From contig CAYMDR010000002.1 of the NCBI GenBank assembly GCA_964389195.1, positions 7,521-35,017 on the forward strand: a stretch of 27,497 bases of DNA, in the 5' to 3' direction. Shown one piece after another: positions 6,984-14,415 of this stretch (its first letter is position 1; every line of letters starts with the position of its first letter). Source of the stretch: an uncultured Candidatus Peribacteria bacterium (GTDB lineage Bacteria; Patescibacteriota; Gracilibacteria; UBA1369). The notes under the pieces are model-generated. The model worked only from the letters and a program-made list of their open reading frames with translations. It was not told the origin of the DNA and searched no databases. Made by a program: the position numbers and the translations under genes.

Positions 6984-9900
6984 ATGGCACTCCCTACTGG
7001 TACTCAAATGGGCCTTGATGCTGAATCTACAGCTCGTGAAAGGCAAAAAGCTTTAGCCAAAAGCCCCACAGTAGCTCAATTAAGAAAAATCGTAGAGGTT
7101 GCAAATGGGTCAGGTTTTCTTTTAAATTCTGAACTGATTGCAGCAGATGAGAATGATGACATCCTCATGAAAAATTTCCAAGAGGGAGATATGAATACCA
7201 TCCCCTTGATTTTAAAAAGGTTGGATGCCGGAACTATGGAATTAGCAGATGTTGAGGCAGTTTTAACACGCGAAAATATCAGTACTAGTATTGGTTTTTA
7301 TATAGACCTAAGATTAAGTTTAAGTCGTGAAAAAAAGCCTGCAGCCGTGGCGGGTTTGATCCAAAAAATACTACGTTCAAATGTAGCAACCAATCGCGAT
7401 TTATTAGCAGCTGCAACTCTACAAGAGCATCAAAATTTTATCTTAGACGTTATAGTAGCAAAAGGACTCCCCCCTCGTGCCCCTGGAGAAATAGCGCAGT
7501 ATTCAAGCTTACAAAGATTATTACTTTTTCTGGAAAATAGTAGTTTATTAGAAGGAGAGACAGAGCTCGAGGCCATCACAAAGGAAGAGCTCGTGCAAAA
7601 ATTCCAAGCTGACCCCACCAACATTCAGCATCTTTACGCGATTAAAAAAAAGACGGAGGAAGGCGAAATAGATCTCATAGAGTTAATAGAAGTAATACCT
7701 CCGCAAGAAATATCACAAATAATAGCCACGCTTATTCGAAGTATCTTTGAGCGTGTCTCTCAGGCTCCTGATAAAGGTGACCAAAATGCCTTAGCTTTTG
7801 AAATCACCAAAAATTTTGTACCCTCAGGCTTTATAACCTCTCAAGACTTAATAAATGCGGTGCGAGGCAAGGAAGATTTAGGTTTTCAAAAGTTTTTATT
7901 GACGTTTTTTCCTGGATTAGAGGCCAAAGTTAAGACAGTACAGCCTCCCTTCCCAGGTTCGCCGCAAGCTGCCAATGCAGAAGCTACTGACGATGGTCAA
8001 GCACTTGGCGATGATGATATAGAAATTGTAAATGAAAATATCACACTGCCCCTCCTCCACATCTACAAAGCCAATGGAGGTAGACTAACCGCTGGATACC
8101 CTTTAATACCAGGGCAAACTATCACCATAGGCCCTCCACCCAGCAATATAGAAATAAAAGGTCTTACTGAAACTATAACATTAAGGTTTGAAGTTTTAGA
8201 ATTTACTACTCCTGGGATTTCTTTAGCGGGACCTCGAGCTGCTACCGTTCAGACAGCATCTCAATTAGGTCAATTAAGCGGTGCTCAGTCACCAAATATA
8301 GGCCAGCACAGGTTAGGTTCGGCAGGTTTAACCATCGGCAATGGCTGCTTTCGTATTGTCGCTGATGGCGTACCGGATATTATTTTTGAAATAGCAGATC
8401 GTGAAATTCCTCCAGCTAAAATAGGGCCAGTGGTTAGTCATCATATCGCAAATCTTATCCAAAGGCGTTGGGTAGTTTTGGATCGAGAAGGCGCGAATAG
8501 TGCTAATTTAGAGGCATTAGATCAAGATTACCAAAAGGTCGTTCAATATGCGGCCGAAAAAAAACTAACCATCTTAAATGAAGCAGAAAGAGCCATTATT
8601 AGCGACTTAATAAACGAAAGACTTACCGGCCTCCTGCTTGAACGACAAAGATTAGTGGCCGAAAAAAATCCAGCCCTAGGTGTCCAAATGCAAATGGTTA
8701 CTGAACTTATCGAAGAGGTTACATCTTTTGCCAGAAAGAACGGTTTTGCTATACAAGATAAAGCGCAGATAGAAGCTAATAGAAAACAACTTCATCACAT
8801 ATTAACCGCCAGAGCCGCCGCTAGAGGTGATAGAAATGCTTTACGAGAAACCAATAAAGCCATGGCTGCCTATTTATGCAGCGCTCAGCAATGCACAACC
8901 TTCCATTATGAAAGTGGCGAACTTTTAGAACCAGACACATCGCCCGCTTATAAAGGCCACGTGATAATAGTCACCACCCCGGATGGTAAAGAACATATTC
9001 GTCCTTTTGTTTTAGAAACAGATACCATTATGGATCTCTTGGCGGAAGTACATCATGGTGATGCAAATACGGTTGAGCTACAACCGGAGGGGTACAAAGT
9101 AAGCGGTACTGGGGGACAATTCCCCAAAGGAGCCAAAGTTACCTTACAGGTTGGCCAGGAGGTAGTGGTACAAGATACTCATGGTCAAAACTACCGAGTA
9201 AAAATTGAAACCCACGCTTATACCGAACGTGCCTTAGAAACCAGCATAGAAGATCGAGTAAGTGAACTAAGCGAAGTAATTTTTGATAATACCCGCCTTC
9301 CCGATCAACAACATCAAAAAGCATGGGAAAAACTCCAATACCTCGTCAACTCAAACCGTATCACTGCTCTTGCTTGCCTAAGAATAATAGGATCAAGAAT
9401 TAGAGCAGCAGCAGGAGCCATTTCATTATGGAGTGCGGCAGAACCCAACGGCGATGCCCATGTTTTAAGTTTGATCCACGCTCTGCTCAACTATCCAGAT
9501 ACTGCTCAGTTACTTTCCGAACTAAAAACTCTAATAACTCCTGAGCTTATGGCCGCAGCCGTAAGGGATCGCACCATGTCTTACAACGATTTTGACCGTT
9601 TTGCACACCCTAAACTCGAATACCCCATTGCGCCCGTTGAAGGTTGGTCACGTTGGCCAGGAGCCAGAGGTCCAGCAGCAAAAAAAGCTTTTGATGAAAA
9701 AAACACCCAACTGGATCAAGAGGCCGCAGAGGCTCAAAGGCAATACGGTTCAAAAGCCAAAAATGGTGCCATTCAAATAGCCTGCTTTTTAGAAAGCGGC
9801 TTAAGCCAAACAGATGGCCTACGCCCAGAATATCTAGCCCAAATCAAAAAAATCCAAGAACAACGTGCTCAGCTACACGCTATTGATCATGGCCAAAATG

Positions 9901-11105
9901 ACATTGCCGCTTTAGACCAGCTTGCAGCACAAAGTGAAGGCATTACCCTAGGAGATTTTTTAACCAGCGCTGAAATCGGTAGCTACTCCCAAGCCCATGC
10001 TGCCTTTGCCCGCCCTACTCCTACAACCACCCTGAAAGCTTTTCTCACCCAAAAAGCCATACTCCTTGCCCGTGGCGCGTTCAACATACTAACAACAGAT
10101 CAGCAAGATAGAGCCGCTATGGCCAAACTGGACTACCTCTTCTTGCGCATGCAAAATATCACCATCTCTTATCGCGATATTGTCACGCCAGCCTTCCCAA
10201 ACCCTGAGGCCGTCTCTCAACACTTAGCCGCCGTTAACTATCTTCAAGAACAAATAATGGTAGGCCGAGAAGCCGTCCAGGGTCCTTTACTGGATGCTGT
10301 CCATGCCCGAGCCATCGAAGCCCTAAAAAAAGCCGGAGATGCCGTGCAAACCATTACCACCGCCACAAGCATCGATGTCCTCATCGCCCTTGCCGACCTC
10401 ATGCTCGACGACAGCTTAGCCGCCCACGTAGGAGAGATCCAAGTCCCCGCCCGTTATGATATGCAAGCCGGCGTAGCCACCCAACCCCTCAAAGGCAACT
10501 GGCAAACCGTACAGCAAATGTGGAGAACCAAACTCATAGAACTCGGAAAAGTAGCGGCGGAAAGAGCAAAAAAAGGTGACGATGCCGGCTTTTTAGCAAA
10601 AGTATTATTCCGTGCTGCCGGTGAAGATTATGAAAGAGGTAAAGATAGCAAAGGCCAAACTCGTCCTAAATTATTCGATCTGGCCGACGTAGGCATCACC
10701 CGAAGCGAACTAGCCGCAGGTATGCAAATTCAACAAGCAGAGTTCACTCGCCAAAAATATTTGCCCTTAGTAGATAAAGCCTGTGCGCTTCCGCCCGAAG
10801 ATTTTAGCTTCATGAAAGAAGCCCAAGCCTTTTACGCAACGGCTCCTCTACAAGAACAGGAGCACTTGGTTAAAACTACCTGGAGAATAATGAACGCAAA
10901 AATTCGCACCATGAAGGCTGAAATACAAGCTATTCAAGCCAAAAAAGAGCATGCAACCGCACAAGAACTAGCAAGAGAAGCCTTTCTAGTAGACAGAGTT
11001 TACCCTGTTTTACAAACGAGAGGCTTTACGACAGCCACACGAGAAACAATTTCAGAAGATGAAGTGAAAAAACTTTTAAGTGCAACCCCAGCAACCGCCG
11101 CCTAA
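6984..11105 (+). CDS. 1373-aa hypothetical protein, mostly alpha-helical, with a possible FHA-like beta domain
   Basis: Uninterrupted 4.1-kb ORF with its own promoter. No signal peptide or TM segment. Beta-rich stretch YPLIPGQTITIG...GLTIGNGCFRIV. Confidence 0.85.
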   Translation: MALPTGTQMGLDAESTARERQKALAKSPTVAQLRKIVEVANGSGFLLNSELIAADENDDILMKNFQEGDMNTIPLILKRLDAGTMELADVEAVLTRENISTSIGFYIDLRLSLSREKKPAAVAGLIQKILRSNVATNRDLLAAATLQEHQNFILDVIVAKGLPPRAPGEIAQYSSLQRLLLFLENSSLLEGETELEAITKEELVQKFQADPTNIQHLYAIKKKTEEGEIDLIELIEVIPPQEISQIIATLIRSIFERVSQAPDKGDQNALAFEITKNFVPSGFITSQDLINAVRGKEDLGFQKFLLTFFPGLEAKVKTVQPPFPGSPQAANAEATDDGQALGDDDIEIVNENITLPLLHIYKANGGRLTAGYPLIPGQTITIGPPPSNIEIKGLTETITLRFEVLEFTTPGISLAGPRAATVQTASQLGQLSGAQSPNIGQHRLGSAGLTIGNGCFRIVADGVPDIIFEIADREIPPAKIGPVVSHHIANLIQRRWVVLDREGANSANLEALDQDYQKVVQYAAEKKLTILNEAERAIISDLINERLTGLLLERQRLVAEKNPALGVQMQMVTELIEEVTSFARKNGFAIQDKAQIEANRKQLHHILTARAAARGDRNALRETNKAMAAYLCSAQQCTTFHYESGELLEPDTSPAYKGHVIIVTTPDGKEHIRPFVLETDTIMDLLAEVHHGDANTVELQPEGYKVSGTGGQFPKGAKVTLQVGQEVVVQDTHGQNYRVKIETHAYTERALETSIEDRVSELSEVIFDNTRLPDQQHQKAWEKLQYLVNSNRITALACLRIIGSRIRAAAGAISLWSAAEPNGDAHVLSLIHALLNYPDTAQLLSELKTLITPELMAAAVRDRTMSYNDFDRFAHPKLEYPIAPVEGWSRWPGARGPAAKKAFDEKNTQLDQEAAEAQRQYGSKAKNGAIQIACFLESGLSQTDGLRPEYLAQIKKIQEQRAQLHAIDHGQNDIAALDQLAAQSEGITLGDFLTSAEIGSYSQAHAAFARPTPTTTLKAFLTQKAILLARGAFNILTTDQQDRAAMAKLDYLFLRMQNITISYRDIVTPAFPNPEAVSQHLAAVNYLQEQIMVGREAVQGPLLDAVHARAIEALKKAGDAVQTITTATSIDVLIALADLMLDDSLAAHVGEIQVPARYDMQAGVATQPLKGNWQTVQQMWRTKLIELGKVAAERAKKGDDAGFLAKVLFRAAGEDYERGKDSKGQTRPKLFDLADVGITRSELAAGMQIQQAEFTRQKYLPLVDKACALPPEDFSFMKEAQAFYATAPLQEQEHLVKTTWRIMNAKIRTMKAEIQAIQAKKEHATAQELAREAFLVDRVYPVLQTRGFTTATRETISEDEVKKLLSATPATAA

Positions 11106-11140
11106 AACTTTTTTGTTCTTTGAAAATTCGCTATATCCAT

Positions 11141-11201
11141 AAGCGAACCTTTATTGGAAGGTAAATAATTTATTATCTTTCCATAAAGGTTCGCTTGTCT
11201 C
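11141..11201. repeat. Hairpin element A
   Basis: Perfect 14-bp arms AAGCGAACCTTTAT (11141-11154) and ATAAAGGTTCGCTT (11183-11196), imperfect pairing inside, followed by GTCTC. Confidence 0.85.
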
Positions 11202-11221
11202 TAAATCTCAAGAATTTCACC

Positions 11222-11241
11222 CCCCGCGGCTTGCCGCGGGG
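11222..11241. mobile_element. GC-rich short hairpin resembling an IS200/IS605 subterminal or REP-type palindrome
   Basis: CCCCGCGGC-TT-GCCGCGGGG; minus-strand context GAATCCCCGCGGCAAGCCGCGGGGG. No U-tract and no transposase in the window. Confidence 0.4.
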
Positions 11242-11301
11242 ATTCGTCTTTCCAGTCGTTCAACCTGTTTGCAGCCCGCAAAGGGCAGAAAGGGGTGCCA
11301 C

Positions 11302-12060
11302 ATGGCCACCCTCAGTCGAGAAGCGTTCGAGTGGATGTTGAAAGTCGGAGGCCAGGGGGATAAGATCCCTGGCCTCTCCGCGCTGATGACCGAAATGTTC
11401 GCGCAGCCGATGACGGATAGCCGTCTCGGCTTTTACACCGACGAGTTGAAGAACCGAGGAATCGTCCTTGTCTCCACTTTTCGGTGCGAAGAAGTCCAGT
11501 TCGCGTTCGAGCGCGAGGCCACACGCCCCGCACCCGTTCTCGGATTGCCCTCTACCACCGCCCCGCTCGCGCGGGTCGGTGCGACCGGGATCGCGATGCC
11601 CGCTCGGGCACCGCGCCCCCGCACGCTGCCGTCGTCGACCTCGCCGCTCGCCGTCCGCGGACGGGATGCCGGCGGCCTCACGGTCGCCAGCGCCCCCCGC
11701 ACGGACTTCCGGGACGAGTACCACCCGCGCCCGGAATGGGCAGGTGGTGCGCGCCCGATGCCGGCGAGCACACTGGTCGACGACTGGGGCGGCCTCGAAG
11801 CCCCCCGCGCCGCCGCCACGATCGACGACGAGGACCGCGACGAGGAGGACGAGGACGAGGACGAGGACGACTCCGGCGCTTACCGCCGGTCGCCGACCCC
11901 CCTCCCCCGGGAGGAGGATCGACCTCTGTCGTATTCGCCGTCGCCCGCCGCCCCCCTCGCGACGACCCGCAGCAGCAGCAACGCGCCCCTCTGGGCCGTC
12001 GCCGCGATCGTGGCGTTCGGCCTGATCGGGTTCATCGTGGCCTACTTGGCGACCCACTGA
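11302..12060 (+). CDS. GC-rich, probably horizontally acquired 252-aa protein: small N-terminal domain, Pro/Ala/acidic linker, C-terminal TM anchor
   Basis: ATG at 11302 is preceded by the SD-like GAAAGGGG. Codons are mostly G/C-ending in this frame. Ends LWAVAAIVAFGLIGFIVAYLATH. Hand-counted GC is 58% (11341-11400) and 80% (11581-11640) versus 25% (12541-12600). Confidence 0.75.
   Translation: MATLSREAFEWMLKVGGQGDKIPGLSALMTEMFAQPMTDSRLGFYTDELKNRGIVLVSTFRCEEVQFAFEREATRPAPVLGLPSTTAPLARVGATGIAMPARAPRPRTLPSSTSPLAVRGRDAGGLTVASAPRTDFRDEYHPRPEWAGGARPMPASTLVDDWGGLEAPRAAATIDDEDRDEEDEDEDEDDSGAYRRSPTPLPREEDRPLSYSPSPAAPLATTRSSSNAPLWAVAAIVAFGLIGFIVAYLATH
11845..11868 (+). repeat. (GAGGAC)4 tandem repeat encoding EDEDEDED
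   Basis: Four exact copies. Confidence 0.9.
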
Positions 12061-12084
12061 GGGTTGTCGGGTAGGCCGAAACTA

Positions 12085-12138
12085 GAGACAAGCGCACCCG
12101 TGTCGCTCCAGGCCCCGCTCTCGCGGGTGCGCTGTCTC
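12085..12138. repeat. Hairpin element B (related to A)
   Basis: GAGACAAGCGCACCCG (12085-12100) pairs with CGGGTGCGCTGTCTC (12124-12138): 15 bp with one bulged A. Confidence 0.85.
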
Positions 12139-12150
12139 GGCCAAAAAACG

Positions 12151-12193
12151 GAACCTTCTCTCGCCCGCTCACGCGGAACGATGACGGAGGTTC
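12151..12193. repeat. Hairpin element C (weaker)
   Basis: GAACCTTC...GGAGGTTC, 8 bp including one G-T pair. Shares the GAACC/GGTTC core with hairpin A. Confidence 0.45.
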
Positions 12194-12234
12194 TTAGGCT
12201 ATCCAAAATTTCTAAAAAAGCGGCCTAAATGGCT

Positions 12235-13380
12235 CTATAAAGGAAACTTAGTAGTAAAATTTATAAAATTATCAATATTAATTATTCCAAAAACAGCGTT
12301 TTTATAAGTCGACAGCCAGCTCTGTGGAGCCCGTGCGGTTTTGTGCCCGTATTTGAATTCATAGCCAAACAGCTTGCTATCTCGTTCTTCAATATAATCT
12401 AACTCCGCACCGGTGTAAGTTCGCCAAAAATATTCAGTGGCTAAAATTTTATTATAACGCAAAAATTTCAGGCGTTCTATCATTAAAAAATTCTCCCAAA
12501 GTTGACCGACATCATTTCTATCTCCTAAAGACTTAACATTATCAATAAGAATATTTCTTATCCCCAGATCATAAAAATAAATCTTGGGCATTTTAGTAAT
12601 TTCTTTTCTTAAATTTCTACTAAAACCGCTTAATCTGAAAACCACAAAGGATTTTTCCAGTAGGTCAATGTAGTGCTCAACTGTACCCTTACTAATACCT
12701 AGCGTATTAGCCAGTTCATTCATAGAAACTTCATTGCCAATCTGAAATGCAAGTAATTTTAATAGCTCGCGAATTTTTGCGGATTGTTTAATTGAAGCAA
12801 GTTCAAGAATATCTTTATAAAGGTAAGCGTTGCTTAATTGTTCCAAATAATCACGTTTTGTCTGGACATTTAAAATAGAAAAAATTTCGGGATAGGAGCC
12901 ATAAATTAAGCGTTCTTCTAATTGAGATTTAAGTTCAAATTCATTATAAATTTGGCTCAATTCCAAATAAGAAATTGGATAAAGCGTATAATTCCAGGCT
13001 CGTCCGGTTAAAGGTTCACTGACTTTATTTGCAAGATCAAAAGAAGAAGACCCCGTGGCAATAATTTTTAATTCAGGGAGATGATCAATTAAAATTTTTA
13101 AATTTAAACCTATATCAGGAATTTTTTGTGCTTCATCAATAAAAAGCAAATCATATCCCGCAATGAGGGATTTTAGTTTAATAAGATCCTTACTGGAAAG
13201 AACATCAATATATTTTTGCTGATCCCCGTCCACAAGCAAAGTTTTATAGGGCAAATCCGCAATCAAGTTTTTAACCAAAGTAGTTTTGCCAACTTGCCTT
13301 GGTCCATAAATAATAATTGCTTTATTATCCTCGTGAACTTTTTGTTTAAGCTCTTCAGTAAGAGATCTCATAATCATCAT
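12235..13380 (-). CDS. AAA+ ATPase (AAA_14 + DUF4143)
   Basis: Walker A GPRQVGKT, Walker B LLFIDEAQ, ATGSSS, LTGR, YGSYPE, KIYFYDLG, GQLWENF, YFWRT...ELDY. Confidence 0.9.
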   Translation of the reverse strand: MMIMRSLTEELKQKVHEDNKAIIIYGPRQVGKTTLVKNLIADLPYKTLLVDGDQQKYIDVLSSKDLIKLKSLIAGYDLLFIDEAQKIPDIGLNLKILIDHLPELKIIATGSSSFDLANKVSEPLTGRAWNYTLYPISYLELSQIYNEFELKSQLEERLIYGSYPEIFSILNVQTKRDYLEQLSNAYLYKDILELASIKQSAKIRELLKLLAFQIGNEVSMNELANTLGISKGTVEHYIDLLEKSFVVFRLSGFSRNLRKEITKMPKIYFYDLGIRNILIDNVKSLGDRNDVGQLWENFLMIERLKFLRYNKILATEYFWRTYTGAELDYIEERDSKLFGYEFKYGHKTARAPQSWLSTYKNAVFGIINIDNFINFTTKFPL

Positions 13381-13772: not shown

Positions 13773-14042
13773 ATGGCTACCTTTGACATCACCTCATGTT
13801 CCTCAAAAGGGCAGATCGTTATTCCCCATAGTTTAAGAAAAGAACTCGGCATAACTACAGGTATAAAACTTATTATTTTTACCGATGGCTCCAACCTACT
13901 ATTGAAGCCTGTGCAGGCTCCAAAGCTGGAAAATTTCCAGAAACTTATTAAAGAAAGCAGAGCAGTAGCTCAGAAGAAAAAGTTCAACCTAGCGGATGTT
14001 AAAAAAATTATTAAACAAGTCCGACATGAAAATCGTCCTTGA
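13773..14042 (+). CDS. AbrB/MazE/SpoVT-family antitoxin
   Basis: SSKGQIVIPHSLRKELGITTG...LLLKP swapped-hairpin signature; overlaps the downstream PIN gene. Confidence 0.9.
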   Translation: MATFDITSCSSKGQIVIPHSLRKELGITTGIKLIIFTDGSNLLLKPVQAPKLENFQKLIKESRAVAQKKKFNLADVKKIIKQVRHENRP

Positions 14043-14415
14043 TACAAATGTCCTGATTTCTGGAATATTTTGGAAAGGCCTCCCCTATAAAGTTCTGGAA
14101 CTTTGGGTGCATGGTGATCTGCGGGTTTTCGCTACTAAAAAAATCCTCCAAGAGTATTTTGAAGTATTGAGTAGAATAGATCAATCAGGAGAGATAGCCA
14201 AAAAATGGCAGATCTTTATCCTCGAAAATATTATTGTTGTCGAAGAAAAAGAAGTTGTTCAGCTTTCCCGTGATCCAAACGACGATATGTTCATTGCCTG
14301 CGCTTTAGCTGCCAATGCTTCATATATTATCAGCGGCGATAAAGATTTACTCACTCTAAAAAAAGTTTCCCAAATTAAAATAATAACGGCGGCGCAATTT
14401 TTGAAAATGTTATAA
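14026..14415 (+). CDS. PIN-domain (VapC-like) toxin
   Basis: MKIVLDTNVLISG, ILQEY, SRDPNDDMFIACA, IISGDKDLL. ATG at 14026 preferred over 13996. Confidence 0.9.
   Translation: MKIVLDTNVLISGIFWKGLPYKVLELWVHGDLRVFATKKILQEYFEVLSRIDQSGEIAKKWQIFILENIIVVEEKEVVQLSRDPNDDMFIACALAANASYIISGDKDLLTLKKVSQIKIITAAQFLKML

Follow-up and report, generated by a model that had tools for sequence, protein, structure and literature searches.

How does a single, extremely GC-rich gene come to lie between two similar hairpins in an AT-rich bacterial chromosome? This question is raised by a locus of an uncultured Candidatus Peribacteria bacterium of the candidate phyla radiation (CPR). The stretch of DNA analysed here (27,497 nt; hereafter the window) corresponds to C2:7521-35017, part of a contig of a metagenome bin of 1.46 Mb in 221 contigs with 92% completeness, 5.75% contamination and a GC content of 40.3%. 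It harbors an island of 0.92 kb (positions 11220-12139; 70-76% GC) with one plus-strand gene for a protein of 252 aa (11302..12060), upstream of which lies hairpin A (11141-11196) and at whose downstream end lies hairpin B (12085-12138). An earlier note, made from the sequence of the window, had taken the two hairpins for candidate recombination sites of an unrecognised gene-cassette system that had captured the gene from a GC-rich donor. Our analysis points to a composite explanation, to which we assign a probability of roughly 0.4: a resident single-gene locus ends on either side in a conserved stem-loop (A and B) that acts at transcript ends and as a homology arm, and the likeness of the two is the scar of a local event.

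Two conserved hairpins with related stems frame the island gene

Hairpin A is formed by two arms (11141-11164 and 11173-11196) that are 88% complementary, with a perfect base of 14 bp below an AT-rich apical part. Hairpin B has arms of 15 and 14 nt (12085-12099 and 12125-12138), one bulge and a GC-rich loop, and with it the GC-rich island ends. Folded as single-stranded DNA, hairpin A reached -17.3 kcal/mol compared to -4.4 ± 2.0 kcal/mol for shuffled sequences (z = -6.4), and hairpin B reached -19.5 kcal/mol (z = -4.1). As both fold far better than their shuffles, the pair of hairpins described in the earlier note, with similar stems, a GTCTC tail behind each, an AT-rich interior in A and a GC-rich one in B, could be confirmed, and so could the bulged base in B, which is the A at 12090 or 12091. 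The stems, AAGCGAACC/GGTTCGCTT in A and AAGCGCACC/GGTGCGCT in B, have 8/9 of the stem in common and differ by one compensatory pair, A:T in A and C:G in B. The compensatory change therefore exists, but the term 'covarying' given to the hairpins rests on this single pair between two sequences. The spacing of 29-35 nt after plus-strand stop codons was also described correctly: hairpin A starts 35 nt past the TAA (11103-11105) of an open reading frame (ORF) of 1373 aa, and the AAGCG of hairpin B starts 29 nt past the TGA (12058-12060) of the island ORF.

Relatives of this locus occur in two unrelated samples, a pond (X3) and another metagenome (X4), whose contigs cover 10857-11269 and 11988-12243 at about 91-97% identity and thereby span hairpin A, the left junction, the GC-rich leader, the C-terminal codons, hairpin B, a third hairpin and the right junction. 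Both hairpins are better conserved in these relatives than their surroundings. In neither sample do the stems of A and B carry any change, and the base of A is constant; the changes are located in the apical part of A (11164-11175), in the bulge and loop of B, in the third hairpin and in the spacers. Within the stretch 11138-11269 the identity amounts to about 91-96%, and in X4 hairpin B is constant while the stretches on both of its sides vary. At their loose ends, the X3 and X4 contigs continue into leader and tail sequence that has diverged but is still recognisably related; at an identity of at least 85%, the relatives' contigs did not show the middle of the island (11270-11987).

Rfam returned no credible match for hairpin A, hairpin B or the structured element of the related genus g19 described below. 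A metatranscriptomic contig from an RNA library of a different wastewater sample (X2) covers 10897-11145 with one difference and stops at the foot of hairpin A. The usual terminators of this genome, which we surveyed by a census of perfect stems, are of the A-tract/stem/T-tract type; the stems of A and B are strong, and neither is followed by a T-run. The folding energy of whole stretches 3' of genes was tried as well and failed to separate gene ends from gene interiors.

The island and its junctions are genuine

In a bin with this number of contigs and this estimated contamination, the assembly might have inserted a fragment of a high-GC organism into a low-GC contig by way of short repeats, and misassembled junctions were among the outcomes that the earlier note had listed as speaking against its own proposal. 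We therefore compared the window to the Logan assembly of wastewater run SRR12487045, the likely source sample, which was made by a different assembler. A Logan contig of 4259 nt is identical to the window over 10940-12400, that is, across both island junctions, and a second Logan contig reproduces two further GC-rich islands on contig C11 of the bin. In addition, the X3 and X4 contigs, which come from two other studies, span the junctions, and an island of the same kind is present in a closed genome (G018). As a second assembler gives the same junctions and contigs from other samples span both ends, the window island is real DNA and its junctions are no misassembly; an assembly chimera is essentially refuted.

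The window gene is one of five GC-rich, single-gene islands

A whole-genome GC scan yielded five segments that lie far above the rest, each with one gene: the window island, C1:28760-29400, C11:17366-17940 (C11a), C11:19000-20080 (C11b) and C22:590-1240. The GC content at third codon positions (GC3) of the island genes is 0.78-0.88, as compared to 0.36 ± 0.06 for 486 long ORFs of the genome with a maximum of 0.61. For the window gene, GC1/2/3 amounts to 0.68/0.57/0.84. Judged by this codon-position pattern (GC3 > GC1 > GC2), the islands are real coding sequence. Their products are predicted to be three lipoproteins (signal peptide and lipobox) and two single-pass or tail-anchored membrane proteins; all five are rich in Pro, Ala and Gly and lack Pfam families. 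The 252-aa protein of the window, which likewise has no Pfam match, is predicted to consist of an N-terminal domain of about 70 aa, a long disordered stretch that is Pro/Ala/Arg-rich and acidic, and a C-terminal membrane anchor.

Apart from itself, the window protein found no homologue in 5.8 billion proteins, nor when 1.84 billion representatives were searched exhaustively, and it had no match in the Atlas; the C11b protein likewise matched only itself in the 5.8 billion proteins. Among each other, the five islands showed no relatedness beyond a short upstream motif. At the DNA level, 40 relatives gave no match to the window island and its flanks except for the downstream DUF4143 gene, and only the close relatives of the window island described above were seen, with no orthologous locus found in the family. 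The window gene appears to belong to a class of small orphan genes for lipoproteins or membrane proteins, extremely GC-rich within an AT-rich chromosome and represented by five loci here, and sequence comparison suggests that the divergence of genes of this class far outpaces that of their flanks. Runs of 30 G/C letters, tried as an island detector in relatives, mostly picked up short GC-rich hairpins, and no family-wide island count was obtained from them.

Such an island may be the product of a plain and fairly recent transfer from a high-GC donor into the space between two convergent genes, where A would be a terminator of the host, B a terminator of the donor and the likeness of the two a coincidence. 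The compositional edges of the window island are indeed sharp (11220 on the left and about 12139, just past B, on the right), a GC3 of 0.84 is usual for bacteria of high GC content, and the region is a variable one with toxin-antitoxin genes. However, neither the 5.8 nor the 1.84 billion proteins contained a homologue from a donor, and the flanking repeats and sister loci described in the following weigh against such a transfer as well.

Flanking inverted repeats are private to each locus

As the earlier note had observed, 11188-11203 and 12083-12098 match at 15/16 positions when read inverted. The left arm, GGTTCGCTTGTCTCTA, comprises the 3' arm of hairpin A plus 7 nt; the right arm, TAGAGACAAGCGCACC, overlaps the 5' arm of hairpin B. 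The repeat in fact consists of three local copies of one 14-16-mer, at 11188-11203 (+), 12083-12098 (-) and 12125-12138 (+), and the sequence of the middle copy falls between those of the two outer ones.

For each island gene, we compared 260 nt of upstream sequence with 200 nt of downstream sequence. The C1 island is flanked by a perfect 16/16 repeat, AAAGGACAATCTAACT, at -153 and +61 (score 16), and the C11a island by a 16/18 repeat at -50 and +103 (score 12), while the window repeat scored 13. For C22, the best repeat (11/12) was not significant, and C11b gave none. When 1012 ordinary genes were subjected to the same procedure, the scores of C1, the window and C11a were reached by 0.1%, 0.4% and 1.5% of them, respectively, and only four other genes attained the score of the window. 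Random segments gave similar frequencies, so that an inverted flank match of the window's grade occurs in about 0.4-0.5% of random segments or real genes. Flanking repeats at three of the five islands are thus far beyond chance. A coincidental likeness of A and B, as implied by a recent transfer, has an empirical p of about 0.004, and it would have had to recur at two other islands (p of about 0.001 and 0.015); on the other hand, a lack of further copies is just what coincidence predicts. Repeats of island strength were also seen at genes of ordinary GC content, namely C123:2476-3336 (-), C122:2092-2799 (+) and C4:20556-22019 (-), in addition to a low-complexity, AT-rich case on C20; the repeat of the C123 gene scores 26, with arms of about 40 nt.

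A search of the genome with the 16-mer (up to three mismatches) and the hairpin pattern returned A and B only. Similarly, the pattern AGCGNACC-N15-45-GGTNCGCT-N0-1-GTCTC occurred in the genome only at A and B and in 0/400 other genomes of the class, and the A junction was absent from the metagenome contigs of the Joint Genome Institute (JGI). The lack of further copies, which the earlier note had named as evidence against its proposal, is therefore what we observed. A common core of the three flank repeats was considered and rejected as chance: the best alignment matched at 10/16 positions, in opposite orientation relative to the gene. Because the repeats differ from locus to locus, they cannot, by their sequences, be sites of one sequence-specific enzyme. 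The arms of the C1 repeat, when combined, read like an A-tract/T-tract terminator split in two.

Repeats of 16-18 nt around three genes for envelope proteins (15/16 in the window, 16/16 at C1 and 16/18 at C11a) might also serve as crossover sites at which a DNA invertase flips the gene, resulting in phase variation. Surface lipoproteins are classic phase-variable genes, and the left arm at C1 overlaps a promoter-like site. That site, if real, is located, along with the gene, partly within the repeats, and a flip would then change little. Furthermore, no invertase gene is adjacent, the repeats share no core beyond chance, and each assembly seen had the gene in the same orientation, although contigs drop rare variants. 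In X3, the right arm of the window repeat carries two uncompensated changes (12084 and 12091), which reduce the repeat to 13/16 and leave hairpin B intact. Together, this makes an invertible gene very unlikely. The decay of the repeat next to an intact hairpin B argues that the local hairpins are under selection, while the long-range repeat would be a historical scar.

Sister loci suggest long residence of the GC-rich genes

The C1 lipoprotein had one homologue, with 56% identity, on Logan contigs of other samples, and this homologue occupies the same locus in a sister strain. Upstream of the gene, C1 and Logan contig L014 are identical at 595/600 positions, and from about 10 nt before the stop codon onwards they match again. 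In between, the coding sequences of the two strains are only about 60-65% identical, with insertions and deletions, while the flanks are 99-100% identical. The synonymous divergence (dS) of this allele pair is about 1.6 and thus saturated, the nonsynonymous divergence (dN) is 0.28 and dN/dS is 0.18, at a GC3 of 0.79 and 0.72. Near-identical strains thus appear to hold anciently diverged alleles of C1 that have been subject to purifying selection and were exchanged, or have diverged, exactly over the coding sequence. Correspondingly, the GC3 values suggest that C1 has stayed GC-rich although its silent sites have turned over. Exact-protein look-ups of the neighbouring genes for further alleles led only to the source sample or to the same allele. 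In the intergenic region downstream of the C1 island, a 50-nt patch (L014:1221-1270) has 70% identity to C1 within flanks of about 98%, and it holds a small hairpin that differs between the strains (GAGCGC…GCGCT versus GAGTATGC…GCTTT).

A comparable situation was found in the related genus g19, which belongs to the same family and contains the closed genome G018. Here, three species carry a single-gene island of 67-80% GC at one locus. The flanks are about 70-73% identical between the species, and only in their C-terminal part do the island proteins share identity (38%). On either side of the island lie structured non-coding elements (L016:3872-3976 and L016:4829-4912 in G018, at orthologous places in L032 and L034) that are conserved far better than the neighbouring genes (about 70% identity). 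Upstream, these comprise a conserved long hairpin of 25 bp and a small GC hairpin with a T-run; downstream lies a hairpin of 27 pairs with compensatory changes, which a covariance model detected only in g19. We considered homology between this 3' hairpin and hairpin B and rejected it: both contain TAGAGACARGCG, a 12-mer at chance level (8 matches in the family compared to 9 in the control), and as the covariance model matches g19 and not this genome, the resemblance was taken as coincidence.

The comparison of the species suggests that the g19 island has been GC-rich at this one locus since before they split. This persistence, together with the turnover of silent sites at C1 with GC3 retained, makes recent capture from a GC-rich donor doubtful and weighs against it as a general explanation of such islands. 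The capture proposed in the earlier note, for which the 1.84 billion representatives likewise offer no source, is thus put in doubt, and for the window locus, too, a recent transfer from a high-GC donor appears unlikely.

A proposed resident locus with conserved ends

In the reading that we prefer, that of conserved stem-loops at the two ends of a resident single-gene locus, hairpin A and a small all-GC hairpin at 11222-11241 would insulate the island from the transcription of the upstream gene or end it, and hairpin B would shield the 3' end of the island mRNA or terminate that transcript. The hairpins, together with the conserved leader and trailer, would also provide homology arms, so that ordinary homologous recombination could swap diverged coding alleles. 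The likeness of A and B would be the scar of a local event, probably the insertion of the gene within or next to a palindromic intergenic hairpin. The intact ancestral palindrome would have read GGTTCGCTTGTCTCTA-loop-TAGAGACAAGCGMACC at the window locus and AAAGGACAATCTAACT-loop-complement at C1.

By analogy, the locus may work most like the replacement-type flexible islets that are swapped via conserved flanks, such as the minimal mobile elements of Neisseria and the swapping of antigen genes. These have near-identical flanks, diverged alleles and breakpoints at the gene edges in common with our loci, and they need no mobility enzyme. In contrast to them, the swapped part would here be the coding sequence to within about 10 nt, and it lies 35-40 GC points above the genome, a composition kept despite saturated silent sites. 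A second likeness is to insertions into palindromic units (IS1397/ISKpn1, and IS110-family elements that target the hairpins of repetitive extragenic palindromes, REPs), where the insert likewise lies between the arms of a former hairpin and the inverted repeats are specific to the locus. Unlike those, the inserts here come without a transposase and target no REP family, and the split-hairpin origin is our inference.

Several points weigh against a resident locus with conserved ends. Hairpins A and B lack the T-run that is typical of the terminators of this genome, so that a role as terminator is only putative, and the sole RNA contig, which ends at A and does not cover the island, may equally have been broken off there in assembly by the palindrome. 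The evidence for allele swapping comes from a single pair of alleles at one sister island, and two of the five islands have no significant repeat. The absence of 11270-11987 from the relatives' contigs may be due either to divergence or to the poor recovery of GC-rich DNA by assembly at low depth. Nor was an empty site found that would support an origin from a split palindrome, as the family offers no orthologue of the upstream gene and the JGI contigs contain no relative. Finally, the reading does not account for a GC3 that is kept near 0.8.

The latter could be explained if the loci bracketed by hairpins and inverted repeats were sites of localised GC-biased mutation or gene conversion acting between the hairpins, which would drive both a GC3 of about 0.8 and the saturated silent divergence; a possible route would be breaks induced by cruciforms or hairpins and their repair by GC-biased synthesis or conversion. 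We give this idea a slim chance. If true, A and B would physically delimit a programmed hypervariable zone for envelope proteins.

The combination of high GC content, orphan status, coding-exact divergence and private repeats is explained neither by recent transfer nor by ordinary mutation pressure. It rather points to very efficient allele exchange via the leader and trailer structures, to local GC-biased mutation or to selection on composition, and all three options would bear on cell-surface variation in ultra-small symbiotic bacteria. Among the observations made here, the private inverted repeats that flank three of the five loci and the saturation exactly over the coding sequence between identical flanks are new. 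In the literature, we found no published description of this pattern of GC-rich islets in CPR genomes.

The hairpins resemble known recombination sites in part

The proposal of the earlier note amounts to A and B being structure-specific recombination sites, similar to attC or to the left and right ends (LE/RE) of transposable elements, at which a recombinase encoded elsewhere captured a circular or single-stranded cassette. Several observations are consistent with this. The direct repeats GGTTCGCTTGTCTC (11188-11201) and GGTGCGCT-GTCTC (12126-12138) bound the GC-rich part almost exactly; the one compensatory pair, the bulge in B and the stems kept in relatives would fit a structured site; the C1 island has invariant flanks around a variable coding sequence; and the genome encodes tyrosine recombinases. 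The three matches to the latter are all located on other contigs (C69, C82 and C99), with no integrase adjacent to the island, and the 92%-complete genome contained neither a Y1 HUH transposase (PF01797) nor a reverse transcriptase (RVT_1). Thus, neither a linked recombinase nor an HUH enzyme, the co-occurrence of which the earlier note had suggested looking for, was found. The same holds for arrays, empty sites and circular joints, none of which were seen in the contigs of four runs. Moreover, there is no second pair of sites in the genome or the 400 genomes of the class, the flank repeats of the other islands are unrelated, and the analogous islands appear to be ancient residents.

Of the cassette proposal, real hairpins that frame an alien, variable gene remain, as do two other islands with flank repeats; a family of sites and a linked enzyme do not. 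It should be added that two findings which the earlier note had regarded as damaging to it did not emerge, as A and B did not prove to be ordinary terminators or REPs unlinked to variable genes, and the junctions proved sound. We consider capture at such sites distinctly unlikely. Had A and B constituted a new class of cassette site, this would have meant a new gene-capture system in CPR bacteria, and the evidence argues against it.

The comparison to individual systems leads in the same direction. As in integron attC cassettes, a single gene is followed by an imperfect hairpin whose structure is kept while its loop varies, and the composition of the cargo differs from that of the host. In contrast to integrons, there are no core boxes (as the earlier note had stated, and the stems of A and B fit neither RYYYAAC nor GTTRRRY, the R'' and R' boxes), no integrase, attI, tandem array or family of sites; the repeat brackets the whole gene and not its 3' end only, and the gene stands alone between two unrelated convergent genes. 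Elements of the IS200/IS605 type and palindrome-associated transposable elements (PATEs) do not match the locus, which is single-copy and has no Y1 HUH enzyme in its genome. A resemblance to the pdif (XerC/XerD) modules of Acinetobacter plasmids exists in the single-gene modules, short inverted sites and lack of an own recombinase; however, pdif sites share a 28-bp Xer consensus, whereas the repeats here are chromosomal and unrelated from locus to locus. No dif-like pair of arms was present at A or B, as would be expected for pdif modules or integrative mobile elements exploiting Xer (IMEX). With no second copy of the island in the genome and no RVT_1, the locus does not resemble a diversity-generating retroelement either.

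Neighbouring features of the locus

The ORF upstream of the island (6984..11105, +) encodes a protein of 1373 aa without a Pfam family; no orthologue was found in 35 other genomes of the family or in the JGI contigs. Between its stop codon and hairpin A lies the motif TCTTTGAAAATTCG (11117..11130, +) with the core TTTGAAAATTC, an imperfect inverted copy of which (GAATTTCA) is located beyond hairpin A at 11212-11219. The 11-mer core occurs 10 times in the genome, where 2.2 copies would be expected. Three of these 10 copies lie 100-190 nt upstream of island genes and in gene orientation, in the window, at C1:29422-29432 (-) and at C22:1243-1253 (-), and at C1 and C22 the core is located in a small hairpin loop directly behind a promoter-like site. 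The island genes may share it as an operator or leader motif. The all-GC hairpin at 11222..11241 (+), with 8 bp and a T-rich tail, is terminator-like and marks the left compositional edge, 60 nt before the start codon of the island gene.

Downstream of hairpin B, a gene for a DUF4143/AAA_14 ATPase (12235..13380, -) converges on the island, followed by a MazE/PIN toxin-antitoxin pair (13773-14415). The third hairpin (12151-12193) had been connected with A and B in the earlier note. It folds weakly (z = -2.0), and on the minus strand TTTTTT follows within 2 nt (12143-12148). Because of this minus-strand T-run and the same A-tract/stem/T-tract form as in the usual terminators, the feature (12143..12193, -) is, by its sequence, the ordinary intrinsic terminator of the convergent ATPase gene and not a third site.

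Toxin-antitoxin-like pairs adjoin islands repeatedly, namely MazE/PIN in the window and an overlapping pair of 78 aa and 126 aa between C11a and C11b (L012:2743-3356). Islands also adjoin orphan genes, and such regions are variable parts of the genome.

A further structured element of about 80 nt is present in three copies, at C17:11999-12082, C32:9566-9647 and C45:4771-4848 (loci L045, L046 and L047). Its copies have a conserved loop of 44 nt (…CTGA…CCAATCGGGGTAGGGACCCCGTTCTTGG…GAAG…) on perfect, unrelated stems of 17-20 bp that end in CATG or TATG, and they gave no Rfam match. The copy on C32 adjoins a 6S RNA gene (RF00013; 49 bits, above the gathering score) at L046:367-523 (-), which corresponds to about C32:9666-9822.

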